Of a stretch of DNA of 64,000 bases, positions 7,536 through 31,568 are shown in pieces; the first letter of the stretch is position 1; every line of letters starts with the position of its first letter. The translations under genes were made by a program, and so were the position numbers. Source of the DNA: a virus (lineage: Duplodnaviria > Heunggongvirae > Uroviricota > Caudoviricetes); IMG/VR virus record IMGVR_UViG_3300021400_000048, positions 120,791-184,790 of that record; one strand, given 5' to 3'. The notes beneath the pieces are model-generated. The model saw only the letters and a list, made by a program, of their open reading frames with translations, did not search any database and had not been told where the DNA came from.

Positions 7536-7570
7536 GAAATTAATGAAATTACCGAAATTACGGAAATTAC
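7536..7570. repeat. 4x GAAATTA(C) direct repeats, 9-bp period
   Basis: gaaatta at 7536, 7545, 7554, 7563, between promoter and RBS of the initiator-like gene. Confidence 0.75.
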
Positions 7571-7580
7571 CTTTATACCT

Positions 7581-7593
7581 TATTATACAATAA
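7581..7593 (-). promoter_or_regulatory. class II promoter motif TTATTGTATAATA
   Basis: recurrent motif with no consensus -35 seen. Confidence 0.55.
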
Positions 7594-7604
7594 AAATATA
7601 AGCA

Positions 7605-8459
7605 CTATAATGTAGCTCTTAAATAATTTTGTGTACCTTCTAGGAAATCATATAGCTTTGGATTTGAAGTAGTTCTTATTTTTTGTAAACTAACTTCAAA
7701 TTTCTTTTTATCTACTGAAAATTTATTAGTAAAGTAATCTGCATAATTTGCAGGTAAATTAGATAAAATTTGTACAACTCTATAAGGCCAGAAAGAAGAA
7801 GAAATACTTTTATATTTTTTTAGATTGCCTTCATCATCTGTTTCTTTTACAGTTTTACTTTCAACTTTCATACAATCATTAAATGCAATTGTTTCAACAA
7901 TAATTGCCTCAATAATTTTATTTTCATTTAATAGCTTTTGAATTATAGCAACAACATTATTATATTGATCTGCAGGATTTTCAAAAGTACTTTCTAGCAA
8001 GTCCAATCTTGTATCATCAGTCTCAGAATCAAGTGTAGCATCTAAACTAACTGTAGCGAAGTTAGCTTTATGAATAGCTAAATTTGATTCATAATAAGCT
8101 GCAGCCAAATATCTAGTATTGACAATTTGTGTAATTACAGTTCCTGCATTGCAATTCTTGCTATTATCTTGCCAGCTTTTATTTTCTACTGCTTGCATAA
8201 TAGCACCTTGAAACCAATCAATAAAATCAATTAGTTCTAGCTTTAAAGCAAGATGATGTTGCTTATATAGCTTCATAATCATAGGCTTATAATTTAGCAT
8301 AACAGAAGAAAACCAAGCATTTTCCATTACATCATCACCTGCTTTTCTTGCTTTACATAAATTGTCCATTCTTTCTGTAATTGTATATTCAAAATAAGGC
8401 TTTGGTAGAATTTCTACTGCTGCCTTAAAATCATTCCATAGCATTTCTATTGTATTCAT
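7605..8459 (-). CDS. divergent sigma70-family RNA polymerase sigma factor
   Basis: region 2-like LNYKPMIMKLYKQH..IDFIDWFQGAIMQAVENK..NAGTVITQIVN and region 3-like VSLDATLDSETDDTRLDLLE; AAGGAGG RBS. Confidence 0.55.
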   Translation of the reverse strand: MNTIEMLWNDFKAAVEILPKPYFEYTITERMDNLCKARKAGDDVMENAWFSSVMLNYKPMIMKLYKQHHLALKLELIDFIDWFQGAIMQAVENKSWQDNSKNCNAGTVITQIVNTRYLAAAYYESNLAIHKANFATVSLDATLDSETDDTRLDLLESTFENPADQYNNVVAIIQKLLNENKIIEAIIVETIAFNDCMKVESKTVKETDDEGNLKKYKSISSSFWPYRVVQILSNLPANYADYFTNKFSVDKKKFEVSLQKIRTTSNPKLYDFLEGTQNYLRATL

Positions 8460-8485
8460 AAACGAAACCTCCTTAATTTCGTATT

Positions 8486-9085
8486 TTACTTACAAGATTT
8501 AGCTTCACTCCAGGTGTACCACGATGTGTTTCTATAAGTATTAATATTTTTCTTTCTAAGATCTTCTTTATGCTCAAGAATATCTTCAATAGTTAAATAA
8601 CTTGTAGCAAGCTTTTTCATTGTCTTACTTGTAATTGAAATTGTCTTAGTTGCATTGTTTTCTGCATCTCTACTTAAATTAAAACGATAATTATTATAAG
8701 AAGTCTTACTAACTCTTACAACTGTCCATACTTGACCTTCTGAATTTAAAAACTTTAAACCTAAATACTTACTGTTAACATTTTTAGCTTTTTTCATTTC
8801 TTGATTCCTTTCTTCTAATAATAAAATGTTTTCAGGCAACTTGTACATTGTAATACAAGTTTTACTAGTCTTATTAAAGATAAATACAGTGTCTTTATAT
8901 AGTCTTACTTTCTTTCTAAGACTTTTACGCATTAAATAATCTTTAAGCGGACCATCTTCTAAATCTTCAGCGGCTTTACCTGCTGACCATGCTTCATTTA
9001 CTAATCGATAGGCCTCGTCTCTATAGAGGCCTAATCGCTGTGCCGCTCGTTGGTAAGCGTGTAGCTTAGGCTTTCTCTTCCTCAT
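8486..9085 (-). CDS. hypothetical protein with N-terminal HA.QR...RLG (RelE/BECR-like) motif
   Basis: LHAYQRAAQRLG...VRLYKDTVFIF...CITMY; start reassigned to ATG 9083-9085. Confidence 0.55.
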   Translation of the reverse strand: MRKRKPKLHAYQRAAQRLGLYRDEAYRLVNEAWSAGKAAEDLEDGPLKDYLMRKSLRKKVRLYKDTVFIFNKTSKTCITMYKLPENILLLEERNQEMKKAKNVNSKYLGLKFLNSEGQVWTVVRVSKTSYNNYRFNLSRDAENNATKTISITSKTMKKLATSYLTIEDILEHKEDLRKKNINTYRNTSWYTWSEAKSCK

Positions 9086-9464
9086 TGTCTTTACCAACAA
9101 TAATGTGCTCATCTACAATATTTGTTTCTAATTCTTCACCATCAGAATCAAATATTACTTCTTCAATAACTAATTGAAGTTTCTTTACATCTTCAGGAAT
9201 ACTAAAGTTTTCATCTTTGTTCTTAATTACATCTACAGGATTTTCAGTAAAGAAAGTAAAACACTTTTCTGCTTCTACTAAATCATCATAGTTGTCAATC
9301 ATGTATTCAAAATCATTGACAGTGTCATCTGCATTAAGTCCCAGTAACCAAACTTGATATTCAACTCTAGCAACATTATCATTGCTAGCATCTAAATCTT
9401 CAAAATCATCTTCGATAGTATTTTCAGAAGTGTCTAATAAATCAAACTCATCTTGATTATACAT
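9066..9464 (-). CDS. acidic hypothetical protein (132 aa)
   Basis: ORF with GGAG RBS. Confidence 0.75.
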   Translation of the reverse strand: MYNQDEFDLLDTSENTIEDDFEDLDASNDNVARVEYQVWLLGLNADDTVNDFEYMIDNYDDLVEAEKCFTFFTENPVDVIKNKDENFSIPEDVKKLQLVIEEVIFDSDGEELETNIVDEHIIVGKDNEEEKA

Positions 9465-9465
9465 A

Positions 9466-10176
9466 TTAACGCTCCTCCAAACTTAAATAATTATTTTCAA
9501 TTTTAACATTATAATCACCATTGAATCTTCTAAGAAAAGCATCGCTTAAACATTGCAACTTGCTAATCTCACGTATATCAACTTGGCCATTCTTAACTTC
9601 TAATTTTTTATAGTTAAGTTTCTTCAAGTCACTATAATAATCTTCATTAAAATTTTCAACAGCATCTTTTAGATATTCTGTCTTTAAATCTCTTTTAGAA
9701 AGCTCATTAACATAGTCACGAATCTCATCACACAACTTATCAAAATCTTGCACTAACTTAGTATATTCTCTAAGTTCATACTTAGCATCTTTCATAGTAC
9801 CATAATACTTATAGTCTTCTTTAAAAGCTTCATAAGAATCATAACCAATTAGTCTATCAGGAATTGCACAACGATTATCATTAGCATTATATAATACTAA
9901 ATAACCACCAGATCTACCATTAAATCCAACTCTATAACCTTTGTGATCATATTCCCAATCTTCGATCATATAATTAACTTCGTTATAATTATCACGTTCT
10001 AAAGCTGCTAAAGCTTCCCATTCATCGCCTTCTAAATTTAAATTATAAACCTTAACATTATTAGCAATTGACTTTAAACCATTCCAACTATTCATTGTAT
10101 CATACATAAAATGTTCATTTAAAAAATTAAACATTGATTTTGTATTGCTAATATCTACACCTTTTTGATAAAACAT
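9466..10176 (-). CDS. hypothetical phage protein (GFNGRSGGYLVLY motif)
   Basis: AAGGAGG RBS; first gene after promoter 10209. Confidence 0.8.
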   Translation of the reverse strand: MFYQKGVDISNTKSMFNFLNEHFMYDTMNSWNGLKSIANNVKVYNLNLEGDEWEALAALERDNYNEVNYMIEDWEYDHKGYRVGFNGRSGGYLVLYNANDNRCAIPDRLIGYDSYEAFKEDYKYYGTMKDAKYELREYTKLVQDFDKLCDEIRDYVNELSKRDLKTEYLKDAVENFNEDYYSDLKKLNYKKLEVKNGQVDIREISKLQCLSDAFLRRFNGDYNVKIENNYLSLEER

Positions 10177-10208
10177 ATTATATTCCTCCTTTGTTTTATT
10201 CTATATGT

Positions 10209-10263
10209 ATTATATCATATTAGATGCAAATTGTAAATAGTTTTCATAATGAAAACGCTTTCA
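10209..10263 (-). promoter_or_regulatory. sigma70 promoter plus cre-like operator (drives operon ending in sigma gene)
   Basis: TATAAT 10209-10214, TTTACA 10232-10237, TGAAAACGCTTTCA 10250-10263. Confidence 0.85.
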
Positions 10264-10446
10264 TTATTCTTCTTCTTTATTCTTGTGCTTGCGCTTTCGT
10301 GTAAATGATCCTTTGCCGCGCTTAGGACGGAATATAATAGCTTTGTGCCTCTTCTGTGCTTCTAAGTGATCTTTAGCAGGAATTTCAATAGTGCCAACTA
10401 TATCCTTGCCAGTTATTTCATCATGAATATGTATCCTTTGTTTCAT
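10264..10446 (-). CDS. ArfA-like small basic protein
   Basis: C-terminal IFRPKRGKGSFTRKRKH resembles the ArfA KKGKGSYxRKxKH motif. Confidence 0.6.
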   Translation of the reverse strand: MKQRIHIHDEITGKDIVGTIEIPAKDHLEAQKRHKAIIFRPKRGKGSFTRKRKHKNKEEE

Positions 10447-10448
10447 AA

Positions 10449-10832
10449 TTAATCCTCTCTGTCTTTTCCTAGAAATGCATCAATTACGTGCCCACACTGC
10501 AAGTATTCTAAATATTCATCAATAGTCTCTTGAATCATATTAGCTTCCTCTGTATAAAAATCTGCATAGTCTGACATCTTATTTGCATCAACTAATAGTG
10601 TGAGATCTCTCTTAGCTGGCCTAGCTATTAGGCTATCTACATACTCTTGTAATAAAGTCTTAGCAACTTTGTAAAAGCACTTAGCCCATAACTTTGTTGT
10701 TTTTAGGCTAAGTTTTGCTTCTTTATATTCAGTTAAGTTATTGATGCGCAGCATATTAAGATGCCTCTTTTCTGCTGCGCGCATAATTAATTCAATAACA
10801 TCATCACTTAAATAATCTTCTATTTTATTCAT
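10449..10832 (-). CDS. hypothetical early protein
   Basis: ORF overlapping the upstream stop (ATG 10830-10832). Confidence 0.7.
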   Translation of the reverse strand: MNKIEDYLSDDVIELIMRAAEKRHLNMLRINNLTEYKEAKLSLKTTKLWAKCFYKVAKTLLQEYVDSLIARPAKRDLTLLVDANKMSDYADFYTEEANMIQETIDEYLEYLQCGHVIDAFLGKDRED

Positions 10833-11148
10833 CAGCTTCAATATACTCCAGCACTTCAAAAGTTTCTGTATCTGCTAATTTATTTTCTAAATAAGATGTT
10901 TCATCATAATATCCAGAATTTAAATACTTAGATATTTCAATAAAGATAGCTGAGCAAGAATTGCCTGTACAAGTTCTAACTGTTTTAGCTCCACCTTTAT
11001 AATTAATTACTAAGTATTCTGAAACACAATCAAAATCCTTATTTCTAAGTACAATATAATCAATGCTCTCAACATTGTCTTGGACTTTAGTAATTGCTTT
11101 ACTAATACTGTGTACAAAATTAACTTTTTTATTTAAATATTCTTTCAT
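10825..11148 (-). CDS. hypothetical early protein
   Basis: TAATG-coupled start. Confidence 0.75.
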   Translation of the reverse strand: MKEYLNKKVNFVHSISKAITKVQDNVESIDYIVLRNKDFDCVSEYLVINYKGGAKTVRTCTGNSCSAIFIEISKYLNSGYYDETSYLENKLADTETFEVLEYIEADE

Positions 11149-11681
11149 TAGCATAGTTTGTCTCCTGTAATTAAATTGACTATTGTATTTAAATCTTCTT
11201 CAGGAATAGCTCTATATAGCCAGCCTGTTCCATAAGTATATTCAGTACCATCAGATAATTTTACAGTTAATAAATTATTTTCCTCTAAAGCTTTCTTTGC
11301 TTCTGAATAATCATATCTTATATTTTCTGCTTTGAAGTAGTCATCAAGAAAAGCTTCTTGCTCTTCAGTGCCGGCATGCATACTATTTAAATGATATTTT
11401 TTCCATAATGTATAAATAGCTTTAAATTCTGGTGTATCTACATATTTTGCAATCTCATCTAGACATTGACCACCACAATAAATATCCGAATGAATATGAT
11501 TCCAAATACGACCGCTAGCAGTAAATTCAATTTTATTACCTTCTCTTAAATACAAGTTAATTGTAACGTCTACAAGATTAGCTTTTCTTTTTGATCGATA
11601 AGCAATTTTACCAAATTTAAAAGTCTTACTAATTCGACCACCGCTTACTAATAATAAGTTTAAAACTTCTGATTGTGTCAT
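11148..11681 (-). CDS. hypothetical phage protein (GQCLDEI..LWKKYHLNSMHAG..YGTGW)
   Basis: AAGGAGG RBS; first gene after promoter 11712. Confidence 0.8.
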   Translation of the reverse strand: MTQSEVLNLLLVSGGRISKTFKFGKIAYRSKRKANLVDVTINLYLREGNKIEFTASGRIWNHIHSDIYCGGQCLDEIAKYVDTPEFKAIYTLWKKYHLNSMHAGTEEQEAFLDDYFKAENIRYDYSEAKKALEENNLLTVKLSDGTEYTYGTGWLYRAIPEEDLNTIVNLITGDKLC

Positions 11682-11711
11682 AAATATTGCCTCCTTAATT
11701 TTTACAGTTAT

Positions 11712-11766
11712 ATTATATCACAAAATAAATAAAAAGTAAATAGAAAACGCAATGAAAGCGTTTTCT
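11712..11766 (-). promoter_or_regulatory. sigma70 promoter plus cre-like operator
   Basis: TATAAT 11712-11717, TTTACT 11735-11740, TGAAAGCGTTTTCT 11753-11766. Confidence 0.8.
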
Positions 11767-12212
11767 TAAAGCATATTAGCTGCTTTCATTGCTTCTTCTA
11801 GCATTTTAGGTGTCTTTAAAGAATTATACTCATCCTGTGCTGGATACCAAACTTCATCTTTATCACAAAAACCATAATAAGTATAATCAGGTGTAAATGA
11901 TCTATAAATTGCTTCACCTTCTGGACTATGCCCATTTTTGCTTTCTTCTTTATGCGCCCACATACCATTAGCACAGCCAGAGGCACCAACTTTAAAACAT
12001 ACATAGCCAGTATAACCTAACTTAATTGCTTCCTTTAAAAATGTTCTCATTTGTTTCATATGGCTAATTGTTAATCTTTCAGGCCACCAATCAAAAATTG
12101 ATAGATCATCATAAACCACGCTAATAGGTCTTGCACAGCCACTTTCAATCATTTGTTCTAGTCTTTCTAATACAGGTTTTGCATTATATTCATTTAAAGG
12201 TCTGTTGTTCAT
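11766..12212 (-). CDS. hypothetical early protein (148 aa)
   Basis: AAGGAGG RBS. Confidence 0.8.
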   Translation of the reverse strand: MNNRPLNEYNAKPVLERLEQMIESGCARPISVVYDDLSIFDWWPERLTISHMKQMRTFLKEAIKLGYTGYVCFKVGASGCANGMWAHKEESKNGHSPEGEAIYRSFTPDYTYYGFCDKDEVWYPAQDEYNSLKTPKMLEEAMKAANML

Positions 12213-12247
12213 ATTATATTCCTCCTTATTGATTATTTCTATATATA

Positions 12248-12493
12248 TTATATTTCTACTTCGTCAATATGAGCATAATTTCTAATTTCAATATCTTCAT
12301 TTTCACAAATATCAAAACTCTTGTCGCCATCTTCATAACTATCGTCTGGATCTTCAAAATATTCAATAGTGTTATCATGAAGTTTTTTCAACTCATCAAT
12401 TGCTTCTTGTTCTGTTTTGTGAACTGAATGAACTTGACTATAAAAATTGTAATCGTCGTCTGATATTGCTTCTGTAATAATAAATAATTTCAT
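12248..12493 (-). CDS. acidic hypothetical early protein (81 aa)
   Basis: AAGGAGG RBS. Confidence 0.75.
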   Translation of the reverse strand: MKLFIITEAISDDDYNFYSQVHSVHKTEQEAIDELKKLHDNTIEYFEDPDDSYEDGDKSFDICENEDIEIRNYAHIDEVEI

Positions 12494-12522
12494 AATTATC
12501 CTCCTTAATTATTTATATAAAT

Positions 12523-12577
12523 ATTATAACGCAAATAAGACAAAAAGTAAATAGTTTCTATAATGAAAGCGTTTACA
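12523..12577 (-). promoter_or_regulatory. sigma70 promoter plus cre-like operator
   Basis: TATAAT 12523-12528, TTTACT 12546-12551, TGAAAGCGTTTACA 12564-12577. Confidence 0.8.
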
Positions 12578-12821
12578 GTTTTCTTTCATTCCATTTGTCA
12601 GTTGCTTTTTGTTTAAACAGCTCATCTTTTTCTACTTCATGACGAATTAATCCACCAGAGCTAAGCTGCTTACCACTAACCAGCACTCGTGGCCCATAAG
12701 TATGACATTTTTTACAATACATCTGTACATGATAATTTATATTTCTTGATCTACCAGTTGTTTTAATTGAATAATCAATATTAGTTGATCCGCAAAAAGG
12801 ACAAGGCTTAATTTCTTGCAT
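12573..12821 (-). CDS. Lar-family restriction alleviation zinc-ribbon protein
   Basis: IKPCPFCG...YCKKCHTYGP...KWNER matches the Lar family pattern. Confidence 0.7.
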   Translation of the reverse strand: MQEIKPCPFCGSTNIDYSIKTTGRSRNINYHVQMYCKKCHTYGPRVLVSGKQLSSGGLIRHEVEKDELFKQKATDKWNERKL

Positions 12822-13020
12822 TATTTGTCTCCATTTCTTTTATAATATAAGATACATGGTCTCGCTTTATATTATACTTGCATTCACTAGCAATTTTCTT
12901 TTTTGTAGCACGCGCATGTTTTAGCATTTGAGTTTTATTTTTAAACTCTTTTTCTTCGTATAATACATGTTCGTTTAGTCCACCACAAACCGATCTAAAA
13001 TATTGAATTTCAACTTTCAT
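12808..13020 (-). CDS. hypothetical early protein (70 aa)
   Basis: ORF in operon. Confidence 0.7.
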   Translation of the reverse strand: MKVEIQYFRSVCGGLNEHVLYEEKEFKNKTQMLKHARATKKKIASECKYNIKRDHVSYIIKEMETNNARN

Positions 13021-13022
13021 AA

Positions 13023-13187
13023 TTAAAGTAGTCCTTTCAATGCTTTAAATTCTTTAAGTTCTTCTTTAGTAAAACCATTATCTAAAAGATTATCTACTAA
13101 GTCAGACATATCACTATTTTCATCATAAGCGTCCAATAGATCATCTAATAAAAATTCTATTAATTTTTTTAATCTTGATTCTTTCAT
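13023..13187 (-). CDS. small hypothetical protein (54 aa)
   Basis: open ORF MKESRLKKLIEFLLDD... directly after promoter 13215; below track cutoff. Confidence 0.65.
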   Translation of the reverse strand: MKESRLKKLIEFLLDDLLDAYDENSDMSDLVDNLLDNGFTKEELKEFKALKGLL

Positions 13188-19937: not shown

Positions 19938-20138
19938 TTAATAGCCTCTTTCTTCATAAGCCTCCAATAACTCAATTGCATTTTCGATATAAACTTTTAA
20001 TGCATATGGAAAAGTATTAGGCTCTAAATCTTTATCTAATCTTCCTAAATTGAAAGAGCACCATTTTAAAGATTTAATAGTCTTTTCAATGTTTTCTTTA
20101 GTAATAATTTGATTATTTTTCATTTTTAAATTATCCAT
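19938..20138 (-). CDS. hypothetical protein (66 aa)
   Basis: TAATG-coupled ORF. Confidence 0.7.
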   Translation of the reverse strand: MDNLKMKNNQIITKENIEKTIKSLKWCSFNLGRLDKDLEPNTFPYALKVYIENAIELLEAYEERGY

Positions 20139-20431
20139 TATTTTCTTCCTTTTGACATTTTATAAAGTTTGTCATAAAGAATTTTATTTAATCTGTCATT
20201 TTCTTCATATTCTTTATTTGTTGGAAATGGAAGTGAGCTTTTCTCATAAACTTCAATATAATTTTCAGCGTGTTTATCATTTACAGTATATCTTGGTGTT
20301 AAACCTATAGAAAAACTAAATTTATTATTTACTAAAAATCTAATTATTCTCTTAGAAACTTTATTATATCTTTTTGATTCATATTTTCCATTGCTATCAA
20401 TAATTTGTTTAACTTTAACTGTATATTTCAT
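20138..20431 (-). CDS. hypothetical protein (97 aa)
   Basis: AGGAG RBS. Confidence 0.75.
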   Translation of the reverse strand: MKYTVKVKQIIDSNGKYESKRYNKVSKRIIRFLVNNKFSFSIGLTPRYTVNDKHAENYIEVYEKSSLPFPTNKEYEENDRLNKILYDKLYKMSKGRK

Positions 20432-20453
20432 TTTTTAGTCTCCTGTATTTTAA

Positions 20454-20783
20454 TTATTTATTAAAGAAAGAGTTCTTTTTTAATCGTCTCCAATTTTTAA
20501 GAATATAGCGAGCTCTAGATCTAAACTCATCATACCAAAGATATGGTGTTCTTCTCATTTGTTTTCTATAGACATCTTTAATGAATTTTATTGGATACTT
20601 GTCTCGCTCTTCAATAAGTTCTTTAATAAAATTAATCTTACTTTGTTCATAGCTCCAATCAAAATCACTATTAAGATTTAATATGCCGCCATTAATACCA
20701 ACTAAGCAAAAATGTTCATTAACCACTTTGGCAAACTCATTATTTTTTAAAGCTTTATACAACATTCTTTTAACTGCATTCAT
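20454..20783 (-). CDS. hypothetical protein (109 aa)
   Basis: ORF in operon. Confidence 0.75.
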   Translation of the reverse strand: MNAVKRMLYKALKNNEFAKVVNEHFCLVGINGGILNLNSDFDWSYEQSKINFIKELIEERDKYPIKFIKDVYRKQMRRTPYLWYDEFRSRARYILKNWRRLKKNSFFNK

Positions 20784-20785
20784 TA

Positions 20786-21016
20786 TTATTTTTCTCCATA
20801 CTTTTCTTTAAGATATTCATAATTAACAGTGTTCCCACACATTATTCTTCCTTGCAGAAAGTCACCTAGCTCTTCATATTCTGCATATACTAGGTCTGCC
20901 TCACAGCAAAAAAGACCATATAGAGATTTTTCTAAATCTTCATCATCTTCTGCTTGAGTAACAAAGACACAAGATATTGGTCCTTTATTAACTCTGTTAA
21001 CGATATATTTCTTCAT
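20786..21016 (-). CDS. hypothetical protein (76 aa)
   Basis: GAGGT RBS. Confidence 0.75.
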   Translation of the reverse strand: MKKYIVNRVNKGPISCVFVTQAEDDEDLEKSLYGLFCCEADLVYAEYEELGDFLQGRIMCGNTVNYEYLKEKYGEK

Positions 21017-21083
21017 TTTTTACCTCGATTTCTTTTTTATATTATTAAGAAGATATAAATTGTTAAACAATTTCTCCCTATAT

Positions 21084-21095
21084 TATTATACAATA
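21084..21095 (-). promoter_or_regulatory. class II promoter motif (TATTGTATAATA)
   Basis: motif upstream of the 19.9-21.0 kb operon. Confidence 0.5.
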
Positions 21096-21156
21096 GACTT
21101 TTATATTTTTACAATATTTTAGTAAAATAAAAAAGCCACAAGTTTTACTTATAGCT

Positions 21157-21873
21157 TTATATTTGTGCTGTTATTTGTCTTATAAGCTCTGATGGTAAGT
21201 CTTTAAGACTTGTTATTATTTCTACAATTGTTTTACCAAAGATTGATATGGCGACTTCGATATTAGCATTATTTATCAATTCTTCTATACTGCTAGATGC
21301 TATATTCTTATTTATTCATCAATTACAAATATTTAACATAATATTTCTTGCACTTACTACATGATTGTTTTTATATTTAGCAATATGGGCGCCAATAGCA
21401 AAAGCATTGGTACAAAATTCTTTTTCCTCTGTGCTAGTTATAAAACTTTTTAGTCATATATCAAAGTCTCCACTAACATAAGTGTATTGATTATCATTAT
21501 AATTTTTCATTTTATTAATAACTTTTTCAAGTGCCCTAGAAACTATTACAGTAGTAATAAAATTTGCTTTAATACACTTTATAGCATTTGCAATAGAAAT
21601 TGTATTATCTAATTGTCCATTCGTATAAGCCAGATCAAGTATAATAGTCATTAAGTTTTGAGCAGAAGTTGCAAGTAACTTAGAATACCCTAAAAGTCTT
21701 TGATTACTATATACAAAATGTTTTCCTACAATATCTTTAAGTATAGAGGTATCAAGTAATTTTTGTAATTCTTTATCTGCTATTCAAACTTCATTATAAA
21801 CTAAGTCTTCATAATCTTTTATTTTTATCATTGGCCAAGACATGTTTTTAAGCTGTTCTGTTGTTATTGCCAT
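21157..21873 (-). CDS. paralog-array protein 8 (238 aa, code 4)
   Basis: open with TGA=W (including TGA TGA); N-terminus MAITTEQLKNMSWPMIK..EVWIADKEL. Confidence 0.8.
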
Positions 21874-21899
21874 AATAATCTCCCATTTTAAATTATTTA

Positions 21900-22553
21900 T
21901 TAAGATAAAAGTGTTTCTATTTGATTCTCCATAATATCTTCCATATTAGGCTTTATCTCATCTAAAAAAATTCTTAGGCACACTGTTTTACGTAATACGC
22001 TACCATTAATTTTTTGAAATAGAATACTAATATGTGCACGTATGTCAGATATTGCTTCCTTTAAGTCTGCCTTAAAATTATCATTTGTTATATCATAATA
22101 AGGTAGCCTTGCATCAGCACTCAAGCTAATTTCTATAGCAAAAGATCTATTGTATCTATCAATAAATATATAAGTAAATTTATTGTTAAAAGCATCTTTG
22201 CTTGCTGTTTGAATTGTAAAAATATTACCATCACTATTTTTTCAGTCATAAGTAAATATTTTATAAAATAGCTCAGCTACTACAATTTTTTTAGCCATTA
22301 TTATTTTTAGTATATTTATAACATTTTCTTCAGTAAGACTATAATATAAATCATTGTTATTTATTTGACTTTTTAAACTAGTAGTTAAAATATTAAATAT
22401 ATCTGCAGTGCACTCTGATTGAGAGTTGTATAATGTAACTAATTTTCCAGATTTATTATAGTATTGTTTTTCTAGACATAAATACGCTAAATCTTTATTA
22501 GTGGCTAAAAATGTATTTATATCCGCTAGTGTTAAGTCTATTAATCTTTTCAT
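21900..22553 (-). CDS. paralog-array protein 7 (217 aa, code 4)
   Basis: joins track ORFs 22242-22565 and 21900-22124 via TGA 22242. Confidence 0.8.
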
Positions 22554-22580
22554 AGATATCTCCAATTATTATTAATTTAT

Positions 22581-23321
22581 TTAGATCATTTCTAATATAG
22601 TTAAATCAGCTATAAAATTATTTATAATTTGTTTTAAATTGGTATCATTAAAATCTGTGTGTTTATTAAATGCAAGTTTGTGACTTGCACCAGCACTATT
22701 TTTTTCACAACACGTATTAATGATAAGTGAATTTACTGTTTTTAAATTAAAAAGATCATAAAAAGTATGAGCTGTATTATGAAGTAAATCAGTTAATGCA
22801 ATTGTTTGAAATGGAATAAATATACTTAAAGTTATTTCTATTTGCTTAGCCCAGTCTACTGCTCCCTTAATTGTATATAAAGCAAAACTACTTTCCTCAA
22901 GTACCTTAGTATTGAAATCTACACTATTAATAATAAAGGTTCCATCATCTGGTACTGTTATGCCAGTTGATACCTTAGAAAATCTATCTTTACTTTTTTT
23001 AAAATTCACTTTAAAGTTATTTAAATTTTGAACTAATTTTGATGCAAGTATAATTTGCAGTCATTTTAATTTTAAGTATTCTGCTATTTGTTCTTCAGTA
23101 TAATTTTCTTTGTTTAGGCTTCTACCTATACAATCATTTACCCAATAATTTAATTGCTCAATTATTGATGAAGGTCCTCAAAGCTTTAGTTCACCACCAA
23201 GTGCGGCATCAATAGTATAAGTAGTAGTACCTTTTAAAATACATGTAATAATTTTTTTATTAAGTAATTCACGACATTCTTGGTCTTTAGAAATTATCTG
23301 TTCCAATCTTTCTAAATTCAT
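22581..23321 (-). CDS. paralog-array protein 6 (246 aa, code 4)
   Basis: AGGAG RBS, ATG 23319-23321, two in-frame TGA. Confidence 0.8.
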
Positions 23322-23335
23322 AATAGTCTCCTGTC

Positions 23336-24103
23336 CTAAATTTTTTGTATTGATTTAGTTACTAAATTTTTAAATATAGGTATTATTGTTTTAAGATCAG
23401 CTTCATCATTAGATAGAAGAAGTCTGTAGTGTCTATCACTATAATCATAATAATATACAGTTATTCTAAAAGTTACCTTAGGTAAATTATATTTAATAAA
23501 ATCAAGTAGTGGGTATTTAATATGACAGTCTAAATCAAATAAGTCATATGTGCATACTATTATTGATAAAAAACCACCAGTCTCTAAATGTTTGTCTTGT
23601 CCTGTACAAGCAATACTATAATTAATATCAAGTCTATCATCTCTATCATTAGGGTCACTTCCATCAGGAATTCCTGGTGTATGCTCAAAAAAATGCACTT
23701 TAAACGTATAATCATTATTAAGGCTATTAAATTCCAACACATTTGTAAAAAGCTTTGAAATTGTAAGAATTCTACAAAATACAGCACTAATATATATTAT
23801 TAAGTCTTCTATAGTAATTTGATTACCATTAGCATCAAAATAAGATTTTTTTGTGTCATAGAGCTTTATAATAATATCACTGATTATATTTTTAGTGTTG
23901 CTATTAAAAATAAAACCATAAACTTTATTTAATGTATTATTTCCTATGCTAAGAGCTCTAGTACCACGTCTTAGTATTCTTTTATTAAGCAACTCTTTTA
24001 TAGTAGGATTAGTATAGATAAAATTAATGGCTTCTTCAGTTATTATACTGTCTGAAGAATACTTATCTATAATAGAATTTCAAGTTGTGCTTAAAGTTAT
24101 CAT
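23336..24103 (-). CDS. paralog-array protein 5 (255 aa, code 4)
   Basis: AGGAG RBS, ATG 24101-24103, one TGA. Confidence 0.8.
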
Positions 24104-24114
24104 TAAAGTTTCTC

Positions 24115-24852
24115 CTAAATTAATCCTTTAAATAGAGCTTGTTTAATAGCTTGATTCATATCTTTTAGTTTAAAATCACCATCTAAAGGCTTTTCTGATA
24201 TACCACTATGATAGCCACCAGGTCCAGCATAGGTATAAATAGATATATGTACTAAACATTCATTTAAAGCATTTTCTATATATTCAGATAAAGATGCTCC
24301 GTTGTCAAGCATAAAATCAAAAATCTTTGAGGCTGTTATTACAATATTATAATTTCCTTGCTTACGTTGATGCGTATTATTATCTATAACTTCAAAGTCA
24401 AGATAATCTAATACATCAGCAGGATCTTCTTTTAATGATATATTGTGGTAACAAGTTAGAGCATATATTCTATATGTTTTTGTATGATCAATATTAGTAA
24501 ATACTGCAAATTTTCTAATAAGTTTGTCTATCGTAATATAAGTACTTAATACAATACAGATATAAGCTAGTAAATCATTATAATGAATAAATTGCGCATA
24601 GCCTTGAAAATATTTAGCATGTCTATCCATAACTTTTATAATAATTTTACGAATTAGTTGTGTTGCTGATAGCTGACCATAGCCTAACAATGTTTCTTCT
24701 ACATTTTGTGGATAGTCATCACTATGTATTAATAATGCATTATTTTTTCATAGATTTAAAAAACTTTGTTCTCGGGCAAGGCTTTCGATAACAATATCAT
24801 ATATACTTTTATCATTTTCCATATCTCGCAAAGTATAGTCCTTAATGTTCAT
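24115..24852 (-). CDS. paralog-array protein 4 (245 aa, code 4)
   Basis: AAGGAG RBS, ATG 24850-24852, one TGA. Confidence 0.8.
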
Positions 24853-24865
24853 TAATATGACTCCT

Positions 24866-25615
24866 TTAGTTTATTATAAAAATAAAATGTTCAGAAATTT
24901 TGTCCTTAATATCTTTTACAAAATCTTTTATTATACAGACTTCATCAGCTATGCTATTAACAACAGTATATGAAGCTTGACCAATATTTTTCAAATACTT
25001 TATTTTATATCTTATTTTAAAGTTAGCTAAATTTTTTTCTATCAGTGAAATATCTTGTGGTCCTACGAGATCAAGTTTTCACAAATCAACTACATAAGCT
25101 GTAATCCTATATGTACAACCTGCAGCACTGATATCAAGGTCAATAGTTAAACTATCACTTGCAGTTATTTGATAGACAGGCGTGATTAGATCAATAGCAT
25201 TTTGCATGTCAACTGCCTTTACATAATATTTTCCACCCGGGTATTTTGAATAATTATCTATTATTGTAAAAGAATTTAAGTTTTTTGCAACTAATTTATT
25301 TAATAAGACAGCCCTAGCTAAAATAGCTTTTATATACAAACTTAGATCATCAATAGTAATAACAGATTCATATATATCAAAATAATCTTTATTAAAAAAA
25401 TAAATGTTATCTATCATATTTTTACAAAGTTTACTAATAGATAGCCCATTATCTTCTAATAAGTTTTTGTATACAGACTTCCCTTTATTAATTGTGAGAA
25501 TTTGTGTAGGATTTAGCAAATCTAATAAGTCTGTATTATTTGCTATATTAAAGGCAGCAGCATCTTTAGCAGTTTCATTATCCTTAATTTGTACTCAAGT
25601 ATTTTGTACTCTCAT
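24866..25615 (-). CDS. paralog-array protein 3 (249 aa, code 4)
   Basis: AAGGA RBS, ATG 25613-25615, two TGA. Confidence 0.8.
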
Positions 25616-25635
25616 AATTATTCAATTCCTTTATA

Positions 25636-26334
25636 TTAGTCAACATATTTTTTAAGTGCTTTTTTAATTTCTTGTGGAAAATTTCCTATAGTACTTTGTA
25701 ATAAATTACCTTTGTTTCCAACAAATACCCCTGCTTCGACTAAAACATTATTATTAATTAAATTTTGTAGTGATTCATACTTTATATTTTCTATATCATG
25801 AGTATTTAGCCTTTGTATACTGCACATTTTTATAATAGTTGTAGCTCATGTTCCATAATCTAAAGAAATACCATAATGTAATAATGTCTCATCTCCATAA
25901 GGGGAAGCTGTAAAAGTTGCAGAGCTTATTTGGCTAAGCTCAAAGTGATACTTATTATTAGAATAGTCAGTAAGTTGAAAATCTTCAAAAGCTTTTTCTA
26001 ATGAGTTAGACAGAATTAAGGCTGCAGCTAGCTCTGTTTTTACAGCCTTAATAGCAATATCTACATGTACATATGTTGGTAAATATTTATAAATATGATC
26101 TAATAGTGCTGCCATTAAATTAACACTTGTGTCTGCACCAGCTAAATCAAAAAATGAAGTTTTTTCAAAAAGTTTTTTCTCTTTATTATAATAAAAAATA
26201 AACTTAGGCTGATTGACCAAATACTCTATATCTTTATCTGTTAGTCAAACTTCATAGCACAAGTCCCTCATATATTTATAACGTTTTATTTCACCTCAAG
26301 ACATTGATTTTAAAACATCTATAGTTTTAGTCAT
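25636..26334 (-). CDS. paralog-array protein 2 (232 aa, code 4)
   Basis: AGGAG RBS; MTKTIDVLKSMSWGEIK..EVWLTDKDI; three TGA. Confidence 0.8.
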
Positions 26335-26377
26335 ATTGTAATTACTCCTATAACTTTTTAAATTTCTAATTTATTTT

Positions 26378-27133
26378 TTATCATTCTTTTGAAAGAACAT
26401 ATTTTACATGTTTGGCTAGATCCTCTACTCTTATATAAGTGTTATTTTCATTTATATTAATAAATATTGGAGCATCCTCTATTATTTCATTTAATGTTTT
26501 ATTCTTTATATCATCTAACTTTGCTCATTTTATTGGCATTCATGGATTACTTATTTCAATTGTAAATGTTGTAAATTCATCTAAGCTTTTAGGAATTTTA
26601 TTAAACTTGTCAACAACTAGCTGAAAAGTATAATAAATGATGTTACCTACTGGTGGGTCTTCATCAAGAACGCTTCAAGACAAATTTTTTGGCAGTTTTC
26701 CTTGTAAGTAAGTATTGCTTGTAATGTCAAAACTAATATTTGAAAATATTTGTGTAAGTGATTTTGAAACAAGTAAAGCAGTAATTAAGTTAGCTTTTAT
26801 ATATTTTATTATGCATTCAACAGTAGCATCTTTGTGCTTTGTAAAAACTTTATTAAATAAAAAGCCCATAAATAATTTTTTATCTGTAAAATTACTGTAC
26901 TTTTCACACATTGTTCAAAAGCTGATCATTTTATTAGTCACATTATCTGTAGCATCAGAAGCTTTGTCTGGTGAAATATTAAATTTATTTCTATACAATA
27001 GCTCATTAAGCATAGTATCATTACATCAAACTGTTGTAAATAAATCATCAATTAAATTCTGATTTATAATATCATATCAAGTCATCTGTAATAACTTATT
27101 AGCGGATATTTGATTTCCTTCTTCTATTTTCAT
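26378..27133 (-). CDS. paralog-array protein 1 (251 aa, code 4)
   Basis: GGAG RBS; LLQMTWYDII..TVWCNDT; about seven TGA; ends TGA TAA. Confidence 0.8.
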
Positions 27134-27162
27134 ATTCTACTCCATAAAATCTAATAATCATA

Positions 27163-27171
27163 TAATTTAGC
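27163..27171 (-). promoter_or_regulatory. putative late promoter GCTAAATTA heading the paralog array
   Basis: motif about 30 bp upstream of the first array gene. Confidence 0.65.
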
Positions 27172-27175
27172 AAAT

Positions 27176-27206
27176 AAAAAGACCTGTTAAAAATAACAGA
27201 TCTTTT
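27176..27206 (-). terminator. intrinsic terminator
   Basis: AAAAGACCTGTT/AACAGATCTTTT hairpin. Confidence 0.6.
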
Positions 27207-27219
27207 ATAAAAATAAATA

Positions 27220-27558
27220 TTAAGCCAGTCTTAAGCCGAGCCTTAATCTAAAGACATCATCTGGACAATCATTATTCCAATCAATTAACCAAACATAAGT
27301 AAATCTTGTCATTAATTTTTTAACCAATTTTGCAACATCTTCTAAATAAAATAATAATTTACCGCGACCATTTAATCCGCCATCAACTGTTAAGATAAAA
27401 TATCTTCCACCATCTTCATTTTCTTCGTCTGAATTATCAACTAATTCAAAGTTTGCAAAGACTAAGTTAGTAAAGTCTCCATGATATGTGTTAACAGCTT
27501 CTTTACAGTAAAGTTCTAAGTCTTTTTCTAATTTTGTTCTTTCCATATAAGTCTCCAT
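27220..27558 (-). CDS. hypothetical protein (112 aa)
   Basis: ORF in operon. Confidence 0.75.
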   Translation of the reverse strand: METYMERTKLEKDLELYCKEAVNTYHGDFTNLVFANFELVDNSDEENEDGGRYFILTVDGGLNGRGKLLFYLEDVAKLVKKLMTRFTYVWLIDWNNDCPDDVFRLRLGLRLA

Positions 27559-27708
27559 TTATTTATTATCTTTAATTATTTTTTCTACTTTAATGTTTAA
27601 TTTTGGAAACATTAATTTATATTTTTGTATTAAAATTTCTCTATTAATGTCTGACATGTCTTCATCAATTATTAATATTAAATTATTTCCTTCAAGCTTT
27701 ATTTCCAT
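27559..27708 (-). CDS. small hypothetical protein (49 aa)
   Basis: GGAG RBS; TAAATG coupling to next gene; below track cutoff. Confidence 0.6.
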   Translation of the reverse strand: MEIKLEGNNLILIIDEDMSDINREILIQKYKLMFPKLNIKVEKIIKDNK

Positions 27709-27726
27709 ATATTTTCTCCAATACAA

Positions 27727-28317
27727 TTAATCTATACATTCTGACACCCAATCAAGAAAATCTACGTCATCAACAGTATCTATAACTGCTGCCCCAGATA
27801 TTGTTTCATTATCTGTTATATTATTTTCTTTATTAGATTCAGCGTCTGTAATTAAACTGTTCAAATCATAATCTTCATCTTTAATCCAAATAACTTTTAA
27901 ACCATTCTTTTCATCTTCTTTTATTTCAGCATAAGTTTCTTCAAAATGACTTCCAGCGTTTTGATATGCTCGCCAATTCTTTCTTGATATTGGGTGTTCT
28001 TGTCCGTATTCTTCACAAGATTTTTCAAAACGTTCTGCTAATTTATCTAAACAATATACCTCTAAATTGATATCATACATTATCATAGCATAGTCATTTT
28101 TATTTTCTATATGCTGCAATAAATAATCACGTACTACTTTATGTGAAGAAATAAAAACAGTGTAGCCTTGTTTATATAAATTAATAGCAGTGTTTACATA
28201 ATCTTTAAATCAATTAGGGTTTGTTTTATCGTAACATGATGACTCTAAGTCAATTATTCTAAAATCTTTTTTTGCAAGAGTTGACTTGCCAATTCCTTGA
28301 TATGCACTAAAAATCAT
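27727..28317 (-). CDS. P-loop NTPase / nucleotide-kinase-like protein (196 aa, code 4)
   Basis: MIFSAYQGIGKST Walker A, IIDLESS, NW(TGA)FKDY, VFISSH..VR. Confidence 0.75.
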
Positions 28318-28520
28318 TAATTATTTACCCCATATTTTATATTTTTCTTCTTTAATTCTTTCTTAAACATTTTAAATGCTTTTTTATCAGTAAAGCATTT
28401 AATGCCTTCAACTCTTGAATAAAAATCAACTGCTTTGTCTAAAGCTTCTTTGGTAAGACAAGTATCTTTGTCAGTGGTCTTATCAATAATATCAATTATA
28501 TATAGTTTATACTTTTTCAT
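28317..28520 (-). CDS. hypothetical protein (67 aa)
   Basis: ORF in operon. Confidence 0.7.
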   Translation of the reverse strand: MKKYKLYIIDIIDKTTDKDTCLTKEALDKAVDFYSRVEGIKCFTDKKAFKMFKKELKKKNIKYGVNN

Positions 28521-28837: not shown

Positions 28838-29545
28838 TTAGTCCCACCATTCACGAATATGCTTAGAAACATATAAAAAGAATTTATCTAAAGCTTTTTG
28901 TTCATTTTTTTCAGCTTGTTTAAATAATTCTTTTGCTTTTTTATGATTTTCTTCACTGTCCCACTCAGCTCCAAATGCTTTAGTTAAATTTTTATCATAG
29001 AGCACTTCTATAGGAATACCTGCTTTGATAGCATATTGTTCAGCTTTCTTTCTAAATATATCACAGCCTAAATCATAAAAAATTAAATTATCTTTTTCAG
29101 TTGAAAGTATATATTTATATTCTTTTTCTTTTAAATCTTTTAATTTTTCAGAAAAATAAATATAATTGCAAGTATGTTCTTTTGTAAAAGCTTGTTCTTC
29201 CTCTAAGAAATTTGTTTCTTGAAATACTTTGTATAGTCTAATTGCTTCTTCCATTTCAGCAATTTGTTTATTACGTTCTTCATCAATAGTATTGCCAAAA
29301 TGTTTAATGTATACTTTAACAAGTTCTATCTTATATTGTAGCATATCAGTAATGAAAGTCCAATCCCAGTCATGATCCCATTTAACATATGGCATCCAAA
29401 TTTTTTTAGCTTTCTTATTAATAGATCTATTAAACTTTTCTGGCATATATTTCTTTTGTAAAGCTTTTAAATCAGCATTATAACTTTTTTTATTTTGTTT
29501 ATGCTCTTTTTTTATTTGTTTCTTTTCTTGTCTTGTTAAGCTCAT
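28838..29545 (-). CDS. hypothetical phage protein (ends IREWWD)
   Basis: 235-aa ORF with GGAGG RBS. Confidence 0.8.
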   Translation of the reverse strand: MSLTRQEKKQIKKEHKQNKKSYNADLKALQKKYMPEKFNRSINKKAKKIWMPYVKWDHDWDWTFITDMLQYKIELVKVYIKHFGNTIDEERNKQIAEMEEAIRLYKVFQETNFLEEEQAFTKEHTCNYIYFSEKLKDLKEKEYKYILSTEKDNLIFYDLGCDIFRKKAEQYAIKAGIPIEVLYDKNLTKAFGAEWDSEENHKKAKELFKQAEKNEQKALDKFFLYVSKHIREWWD

Positions 29546-29782: not shown

Positions 29783-29809
29783 AAAAAGACTCAAAATTGA
29801 GTCTTTTTT
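29783..29809 (-). terminator. intrinsic terminator ending the tail operon
   Basis: AAAAAGACTC-AAAATT-GAGTCTTTTT. Confidence 0.75.
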
Positions 29810-31568
29810 ATTCATGTTTGCTTCAACTACAACAAATATGCACTGTTTCACCATCTTTACTTCAGCCAGTTCCGCCAATTCTAAAATAGAAAAAAGAGCC
29901 AGATTTTTCTGTGTAGGCAGTAACAGTATATAAGCTATCTCCATTTTCTCTACATAGTGAAACATTTCCACCATCACATATGCGTATATCACTATAGACG
30001 AGTAATTCAGGTGGTAATGGAATTCGGCAAGCATTACTATTTTTAATATTTTTTATTTCACCTATAAAAATACAACCTTTATCAATTTTAATTAAAGTTC
30101 CACTAGCAGTTTTATCTTCACCACTAGTATAATTAATTGTAGTTAAATTATCTGTAGTATTATTAATCATTTTTGTAGTAAATGTAATATGCTTACCAAT
30201 AAGGCCTGAGCATTCTGTAAATTCACCATCTTTTAAATAGATTGGCGAATTAGCATTTCCTACATTACCATAGCTTTCAGTAAATTGTCCATCATCTATA
30301 AATACTAAACGCTTAGTACTTCCAAGATTTAAATTAGTATTATCACTTTGTTTAATTTTAATACCTGTATAACTATAATTTGTTATATTACCTGCATAAA
30401 AGTTAGTTGTTGCTCTAACATCTAAAATATCATTTACAAGACCTATATTATCTACGTTTGAAGGCAATGAACTAGCAAAGCCTTTTATAGAAAGACACTT
30501 ATCATTTACTATAATTCTTTCACTATCTATAATAACATCATTTATATTTGTTCTACCGCGCATTATAATTTTAGGATCAGTACCTGTAGCAGTAGGATCA
30601 ACTAGTAATGTTGCTGTTGTATTTGGTTCACTTTCATAATCTTGCCAGAAGTTGCTATCATCAACATTTGCATCAACTAATAATTTATAGATAGCTGCAG
30701 CACGATTATTTTTACTAATAGATATTGCACTATTATTACTGTCATCTTTAATATCAAATTGTCCAACAAGATCAGTTTTTCCATCAGTACCAATGCTAAA
30801 TAAATCTTTTCTTTGTGAACTTGTTCCACCACCTACTTCAAATAATTTTCCACCAATATTATATTTACCGACTGCAAAACTTCCTTCAATGGTTGCCTTA
30901 GTTCCTATTCCAATAGCAATACTATTTGCACCAGATGCTTCATCTGCACTAATAGCTTTTATAGCTCCAGTACCAGTACCATTTATTAATCTATTTGTAA
31001 TAGGAATACCATTTTCTTCACTCTCTATATGAGTAGCAGTTTCTGTAAGTAAAGAAGCATTAACTGTTAGACAATCTGGCATATGAACTGTTCAAATAGG
31101 TAGGCTAATTATATTTACATTGCTACCACTTGGTGCCTCATTAGATAAGATTAATGCTTGGAAATAATAGTCACTACTATTTTTAGTATCATAGTCAGTT
31201 CCTGTAAAAGGAATAAGCTTTTTTGTTAAAAAATCATCACTGTCTGTCAATATTGATACATAGTCTATTTTAATCTTAGCATAAATAGTGTCACCATCAT
31301 CAAAATTATTTAAAAGTGTAGACTTAGCAATAGAAAAGTTAAAATAATAACCATGAATTACACACTCTACATAATACTTAGTATTTTTTAGTACACTACT
31401 AATAATATAAGAATCTTTTCCTTTAATGCTGCCTCCACTATGAGAAATATTAAATTCAGTGTTAAGTCGAGCTTCTGGATCAATTCATATATTTGGTTCT
31501 GGATTGTTAGTTCTAAAACCACTTGGATAAACTTTTATATCATTACTTAAAATTGTTATATATGACAT
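29808..31568 (-). CDS. tail fiber / receptor-binding protein with YadA-head-like repeat (586 aa, code 4)
   Basis: ASGANSIAIGIGTKATIEGSFAVGKYN..LFEVGGG; last gene of baseplate operon; four TGA. Confidence 0.7.

Follow-up and report, generated by a model that had tools for sequence, protein, structure and literature searches.

An orphan family of tandem paralogs in putatively late promoter–terminator cassettes of a TGA-recoded jumbo phage

In the jumbo phages SPN3US and phiKZ, late paralog families of variable copy number are virion head proteins: family B comprises 20 members in SPN3US (i.e. gp83, 138–154, 161 and 237), which were located in the virion by mass spectrometry, vs 2 in phiKZ, and family A (pfam12699) varies from 2 to 7 members (PMC5694885). 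A second precedent is given by Ip1–3 of phage T4, which are packaged and injected, specific anti-restriction proteins that each disable one defence variant (PMC12373910); the ip loci of T-even phages were described as polymorphic by Repoila et al. 1994, as cited in PMC12373910. Finally, in phages that have reassigned TGA, recoding is typically seen in genes for structural proteins or lysis (bioRxiv 10.1101/2021.08.26.457843). Here, we describe a tandem array of eight divergent paralogs on a 64,000-nucleotide stretch (hereafter the window) of an uncultured tailed phage, i.e. bases 120791–184790 of the IMG/VR record IMGVR_UViG_3300021400_000048. The record comprises 223,464 bp with a G+C content of 29 %, and its ends overlap by 88 bp.

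The array shares several features with family B of SPN3US and phiKZ. Both form tandem rows of diverged paralogs of around 30 kDa, both occur in jumbo myophages that encode a prohead protease of the T4 type, both show a plastic copy number (2 to 20 there vs 2 to 11–12 here), and neither displays an enzymatic motif. In contrast, the present family lies in movable promoter–terminator cassettes and depends on TGA recoding. Comparison with SPN3US gp144–154, both as an alignment and as single proteins, gave no indication of homology (hhalign ≤0.4 %, hmmsearch E ≥0.8), and a Pfam scan of the eight proteins at E values up to 1 returned no match to pfam12699, i.e. the phiKZ inner-body and SPN3US family A domain. 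The parallel with the head-protein paralogs of jumbo phages, which had been drawn in a first-pass annotation of the window, is a fair analogy as far as genomic behaviour is concerned, but does not extend to homology with family B or pfam12699.

Like the T4 internal proteins, the family looks non-essential, is presumably made late, diverges quickly and occupies variable loci, with several versions per phage. However, the T4 proteins are small and mutually unrelated apart from a cleaved capsid-targeting sequence of about 10 residues, whereas the members of the present family have a whole 240-aa fold in common and no evident cleavable tag. The phage itself resembles the Jade, Agate and Sapphire clades of TGA-recoded gut and rumen phages, which likewise combine a genome of around 200 kb and a suppressor tRNA with in-frame TGA codons in scattered late modules and standard-code genes in between; that work covers the coding pattern of structural and lysis genes, not the present family or its cassettes (bioRxiv 10.1101/2021.08.26.457843). 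We classify the phage as a recoded phage of a known type and the array as a case of a known jumbo-phage phenomenon, here displayed by an orphan family that is new.

Translation with table 4 yielded exactly eight back-to-back open reading frames (ORFs) of 217–255 aa on the minus strand between positions 21157 and 27133 of the window, while table 11 broke the same genes into fragments. From the 5′ end of the array, these are gene 1 (P0001, 26378–27133, 251 aa, type A), gene 2 (P0002, 25636–26334, 232 aa, type A), gene 3 (P0003, 24866–25615, 249 aa, type B1), gene 4 (P0004, 24115–24852, 245 aa, type B2), gene 5 (P0005, 23336–24103, 255 aa, type B2′), gene 6 (P0006, 22581–23321, 246 aa, an old type of its own), gene 7 (P0007/P0027, 21900–22553, 217 aa, also an old type of its own) and gene 8 (P0008, 21157–21873, 238 aa, type A), with 7, 3, 2, 1, 1, 2, 1 and 4 in-frame TGA codons, respectively, i.e. 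21 in total. Each gene carries GGAG, AGGAG or GGA 6–9 nt ahead of its ATG, each ends in TAA or TAG, and the gaps between them measure 11–43 nt. For gene 7, the start was set at the ATG at 22553, which is led by a Shine–Dalgarno (SD) sequence, in contrast to an upstream TTG at 22565.

The GCTAAATTA box occurs once in the region (27163–27171, minus strand; extended form TTTATTTGCTAAATTATATGATTATTA), 38 nt 5′ of gene 1, and represents a putative late-class promoter element. It is abutted by a terminator-like hairpin of 13 pairs with a T run (27177–27206, minus strand), which closes the upstream gene, and a second such hairpin of 12 pairs with a T run (21132–21158, minus strand) overlaps the stop codon of gene 8 and ends the unit. 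Since these were the only two terminator-like sites in the 8.5 kb scanned (20000–28500), one on each side of the array, the unit is cleanly delimited. The eight genes accordingly read as one predicted transcription unit, i.e. a terminator, a late-class box, eight SD-led genes and a further terminator. The first-pass annotation had proposed eight contiguous genes of this size with ribosome-binding sites and about 21 TGA codons behind a single box, provided that TGA encodes tryptophan, and this description was borne out in full.

Several lines of evidence point to TGA being read as tryptophan. The best-conserved column of the family is a tryptophan, encoded by TGA in six members and by TGG in two; a second TGA column aligns with a TGG of gene 6, and at the other TGA positions the aligned residues are mostly hydrophobic or aromatic. 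Among the 29 tRNA genes of the record, one has the anticodon UCA and resembles the phage's own tRNA-Trp in its anticodon-loop context and its G discriminator base. Judged by codons and tRNA, TGA thus is a tryptophan codon in this phage. Its use within the family is heavy, with 36 of the 40 tryptophan codons being TGA (90 %; 4 TGG) as compared to 367 of 488 in the other TGA-containing genes (121 TGG), and 153 genes of the genome contain no TGA at all. The array stands out as a TGA-rich island, its own neighbours being TGA-free. Given in-frame TGA at tryptophan positions, a suppressor tRNA encoded by the phage and standard-code genes alongside, the family can be assigned to the recoded late genes known from TGA-recoded phages, and the array pattern agrees with the one published for such phages (bioRxiv 10.1101/2021.08.26.457843).

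The promoter box supports the same assignment. Its extended form is TTTATTTGCTAAATTA, and across the whole genome the box was found in 35 copies on the coding strand vs 3 on the other strand, and 31 of these 35 are intergenic. The box precedes the genes for the tail sheath, the prohead protease and other structural proteins, and TGA is present in 18 of the 27 genes directly behind it as compared to 71 of 215 others (Fisher p = 0.001). Moreover, the GCTAAATTA box heads not only the array but every other cassette of the family, including those of related phages. Based on the promoter class shared with structural genes and the 90 % of tryptophan codons present as TGA, we infer that the array is expressed late. 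The proteins would then be made only late in infection, and their synthesis would need the phage's own tRNA(UCA). The late expression suggested by the first-pass annotation thus gains indirect, sequence-based support, i.e. from a promoter box like that of sheath and protease, from a TGA island among TGA-free neighbours and from the dominance of TGA over TGG. In a search of public sequencing runs, the stretch was detected in DNA runs from goat, bovine and sheep gut metagenomes, and no RNA sequencing runs containing it were listed.

Homology within the array is clear for six genes, and genes 6 and 7 are joined to these by profile comparison. Pairwise BLAST and phmmer searches separated two solid groups, i.e. 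type A (genes 1, 2 and 8) and type B (genes 3, 4 and 5), and these two matched each other over their full length (hhalign 92.8 %, E 4e-7). For the groups of genes 6 and 7, the profiles were extended with orthologues from public data before testing. The gene 7 group then aligned with the combined A and B profile over its full length (93.4 %, E 2.5e-7), and the gene 6 group (seven sequences) aligned with the family over the N-terminal half and the central helix only (84.7 %, E 7e-6), while column-shuffled and reversed alignments did not exceed 0.4 %. Among 69 ORFs of similar size in the genome, genes 7 and 6 rank next after the nine training members. In addition, the AlphaFold2 model of gene 6, albeit of low confidence [predicted local distance difference test (pLDDT) 57], shows the same order of elements as that of gene 1. 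Homology of all eight genes is therefore supported by the profile comparisons, with gene 6 being the least certain since its match covers the N-terminal half only. The N-terminal motif L..M(S/T)W..I...VW..D, noted earlier for three members, is present in genes 1, 2 and 8, and all strings quoted for the shared central helix were found where the model places a long helix.

When all code-4 ORFs of the genome were searched with BLAST and phmmer, three further copies were found outside the window, around 60 kb from the array (genome positions 77539–83052, i.e. 7539–13052 of locus L001). X1 (82294–83052) is of type A, X2 (81539–82279) of type B (B2′) and sister to gene 5, and X3 (77539–78309) again of type A. 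They form two box-led, TGA-rich islands, one composed of X1, X2 and a 441-aa gene and the other of X3 and a 180-aa gene, surrounded by TGA-free nrdD, nrdG and methyltransferase genes; neither partner gene matched Pfam or PHROG. Over about 30 nt, X1 and gene 1 have almost the same promoter and 5′ leader sequence, indicating that the promoter was copied together with the gene. A box-led ORF of 224 aa with 6 TGA codons (genome 87479–88153, i.e. L001 17479–18153) contains a central-helix string resembling the type B consensus; it was considered as a twelfth, very diverged member and was not counted, since hhalign gave only about 5 %. With three to four copies elsewhere in the genome and 2 to 11–12 copies among relatives, the earlier view of an expanded and diversified paralog family holds.

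The family is rare. Searching 1.84 billion representative proteins of any length with the nine-member profile returned 17 proteins, which are encoded on a few related phage contigs of gut or rumen origin; as all of them are 70–253 aa long, there are no fused forms among them. A search for related loci with a single member found no relative, and none of 50,697 GenBank phages was matched by one member in a tblastn search. The most informative relative is a complete phage genome of 237 kb, which harbours one array of five genes and no detectable dispersed copy. These five genes match genes 2, 3, 4/X2, 6 and 7 in that order at 26–39 % identity, the first of them being the orthologue of gene 2, and a maximum-likelihood tree resolves five one-to-one orthologue pairs with support values of 82–100. 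Both arrays start with the same hairpin, box and leader and end with the same terminator sequence, and the coding sequences between these conserved ends are greatly diverged, while some other genes shared by the two phages are 55–89 % identical. In the 237-kb genome, the cassette sits among standard-code genes and not beside fibre genes. Directly past that array (L003 13660–14917), a second GCTAAATTA box drives a TGA-containing gene of 404 aa, which is without a homologue in the phage studied here.

Two more contigs carry two-gene cassettes, consisting of an X2-like and a type 6 gene, behind the same hairpin and box, again as TGA islands. In a close relative with 88–90 % DNA identity, genes 5–8 are found in the same order, and the ratios of non-synonymous to synonymous substitutions (dN/dS) of genes 5, 6, 7 and 8 are 0.32, 0.50, 0.14 and 0.26, respectively, vs 0.07 for the helicase and 0.06–0.30 for small flanking genes. 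By this measure, the array genes are real and evidently under purifying selection. A partial relative of 115.5 kb (L002, IMGVR_UViG_3300021399_000119) gave no family match; it shares a gene of 235 aa with the window (28838–29545, 76 % identity) and shows few in-frame TGA codons in the 20 kb examined. This relative may represent a cousin with less recoding or with the standard code. The picture suggested by these comparisons is that of an old set of five types with lineage-specific gain and loss, evolving faster than the core genes. The family would evolve by gene birth and death, with the five old types keeping their order in a distant relative, and the present phage would have added duplicates inside the array as well as three to four copies at other sites, each accompanied by a promoter copy of its own.

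The members are lineage-specific, soluble proteins of about 28 kDa. The AlphaFold2 model of gene 1, based on the nine-member alignment, reached a pLDDT of 76 and a predicted template modelling score (pTM) of 0.78. Its N-terminal half is a bundle of short helices (residues 10–100) with a small hairpin, followed by a 28-residue helix (residues 105–132), and its C-terminal half consists of a five-stranded antiparallel sheet, two short helices and a C-terminal helix. In the models of both gene 1 and gene 6, the elements succeed one another as N-terminal helices, long helix, three strands, two short helices, two strands and C-terminal helix. The conserved columns are nearly all hydrophobic or aromatic, plus a T/S-W pair, D/N, N and K, and since conservation is thus confined to hydrophobic core positions, the proteins probably act by binding rather than as enzymes. 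Variation is highest at residues ~136–200, i.e. the first strands and loops of the sheet half, and the N-terminal half and central helix are better conserved. We read the model as a stable scaffold that would present a variable surface.

No family had been recognized in the first-pass annotation, and none was recognized in searches of Pfam, PHROGs, PADLOC and PDB sequences, the latter including a profile search without hits. Foldseek comparisons with PDB, BFVD and AFDB clusters returned nothing at E <0.05, and in a wide VIA-align search the best scores were Z 6.0 (Med17C) and 5.2 (frataxin), covering the C-terminal half only and lying in a range flagged as common arrangements; other matches of this half at Z ≤6 were RWD-type kinetochore proteins, actin capping protein and an Rhs immunity protein. 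A PADLOC PDC-S05 match in gene 8 (20 residues, E 0.0012) was taken as chance. Membrane proteins were considered because of the hydropathy of the central helix (Kyte–Doolittle 1.4–1.9) and rejected, as the helix contains charged residues and is packed against the sheet according to the model; neither a membrane segment nor another export feature was seen in the family. Likewise, the proteins do not qualify as DNA mimics, since the whole proteome shares their mild acidity and their isoelectric points of 5.3–8.7 are ordinary for it.

With regard to function, the first-pass annotation had suggested effectors such as anti-defence proteins, possibly packaged and injected. Our overall best explanation, to which we assign a rough probability of 45 %, is that the family comprises late-made, non-catalytic, virion-associated accessory proteins encoded in promoter–terminator cassettes. 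Association with the virion, which we rate as evenly poised, is proposed because the late paralog families of jumbo phages are head proteins by mass spectrometry and because of the injected proteins of T4. As to the place in the particle, packaging in the head and ejection with the DNA is possible at best, and a role as capsid- or tail-decorating surface proteins appears less likely again; the variable sheet face would contact host or defence molecules. Several observations weigh against this explanation. The cassettes of three relatives and the second locus of the phage itself sit among standard-code, non-structural genes, so that the position beside fibre genes in the window is incidental. 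The N-terminal (S/T)W..(I/M) motif is restricted to family members, which account for 8 of its 9 matches in the genome; it is modelled inside a folded helix (pLDDT ~96) and is followed by no conserved Glu; hence, nothing in the models points to a T4-like capsid-targeting tag or a prohead-protease site. There is also no fold match to any viral protein model (Foldseek, BFVD), and the persistence of five types as one-to-one orthologues speaks for fixed, non-redundant roles more than for an arsenal with fast turnover.

Alternatively, the proteins would be made late but remain cytoplasmic and not become part of the particle. They could then assist or scaffold the assembly of the many large fibre proteins of the phage, regulate late processes (e.g. 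the timing of lysis, or packaging) or shield the producing cell against superinfection or abortive defence. We regard this as a serious rival, if less likely than not; it accounts for cassettes outside structural modules, for the missing targeting tag in common with other proteins and for the lack of resemblance to known virion proteins in PHROG and fold searches. The C-terminal domain shows a weak likeness to small alpha/beta folds of binding or chaperone-like proteins, namely frataxin (Z 5.2), the TriTu immunity protein (Z 4.9) and type III secretion chaperones (Z 3.5–3.6), but such structural matches are within the range that the tool itself calls common arrangements, fibre chaperones are normally encoded singly beside the fibre gene and not as eight in a row, and the large late paralog families of jumbo phages analysed by mass spectrometry are virion proteins (PMC5694885). 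The retention of types leads to another, improbable alternative, in which the five old types would come together as subunits of one hetero-oligomeric assembly, whether structural or not, with the extra copies serving as interchangeable isoforms. The conserved order and one-to-one orthology, seen in two phages with just 26–39 % identity in these genes, would then stem from stoichiometric co-assembly and not from an arms race; the B2′ and type 6 pair as the minimal cassette of two further relatives, the duplication of X1 (type A) and X2 (type B2′) as a pair, and the fact that the best weak fold matches (Med17C, kinetochore RWD and actin capping protein, Z 3.5–6.0) pair via a helix-plus-sheet module are in line with it. 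However, those matches are weak, two relatives manage with two types, and the monomer model is compact (pTM 0.78). A complex prediction combining three proteins of the 237-kb relative (types A, B1 and B2) scored 0.00, which gave no verdict and is evidence neither way.

The better conservation of the N-terminal half and central helix relative to the sheet region would also be expected of host-recognition modules attached to the tail or baseplate, with the former docking on the virion and the variable C-terminal half binding receptors, resulting in a multivalent host range. In the window, the array indeed follows fibre-like genes, among them that of a YadA-head repeat protein (29808–31568). Yet this neighbourhood is not conserved in relatives, the fold is unlike that of beta-rich trimeric receptor-binding proteins and there is no match in PHROG tail families or BFVD, which makes such a role very doubtful. 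Returning to virion-associated accessory proteins, a bolder version would see in the family a new fold class that is packaged and delivered to the host, each old type neutralizing a different defence or surface barrier and the duplicates tracking variants of these, or else the five types building a virion substructure unique to the clade. We consider this a long shot. Under the delivery scenario, synthesis would be gated twice, i.e. by the late promoter and by a near-total dependence on UGA suppression.

Nearly all genes of the phage are encoded on the minus strand. Judging by PHROG and Pfam matches, a head-to-tail structural module occupies around 28–64 kb of the window, including an S77-type prohead protease, the tail sheath, a baseplate wedge protein and the fibre-like protein with the YadA-head repeat, and an SNF2 helicase is encoded in the standard-code part below 18 kb. 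No close cultured phage was found, the sheath being around 25 % identical to its best GenBank match. Immediately 5′ of the array lies a TGA-free gene of 112 aa (27220–27558, minus strand) without a family match; it is 78.5 % identical in the 237-kb relative, where it is also located directly upstream of the array, and may be functionally linked to the cassette. Directly past the array terminator, a promoter-like element of the TATTGTATAATA type (21081–21093, minus strand) precedes small TGA-free genes of 76, 109, 97 and 66 aa. Genetic code and promoter class thus both change within about 60 nt at the 3′ end of the array.

Jumbo phages are characterized by paralog families of variable copy number, none of which has, to our knowledge, a firmly established function. 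The orphan family described here is of moderate interest at present, but it is unusually well delimited, with a fixed promoter–terminator cassette, 2 to 8 genes per cassette and five old types, and it combines a compact two-domain fold bearing a clearly variable face with a phage whose late genes need a code switch for their reading. New beyond the array itself are the extra genomic copies, the descent from five types, the conserved boundaries of the cassette, the finding that the family is rare and the description of its fold. The family may therefore serve as a test case for the purpose of variable-copy paralog families, for late recoded cassettes as a route by which accessory genes spread within a genome, and for heavy TGA use as an expression lock.

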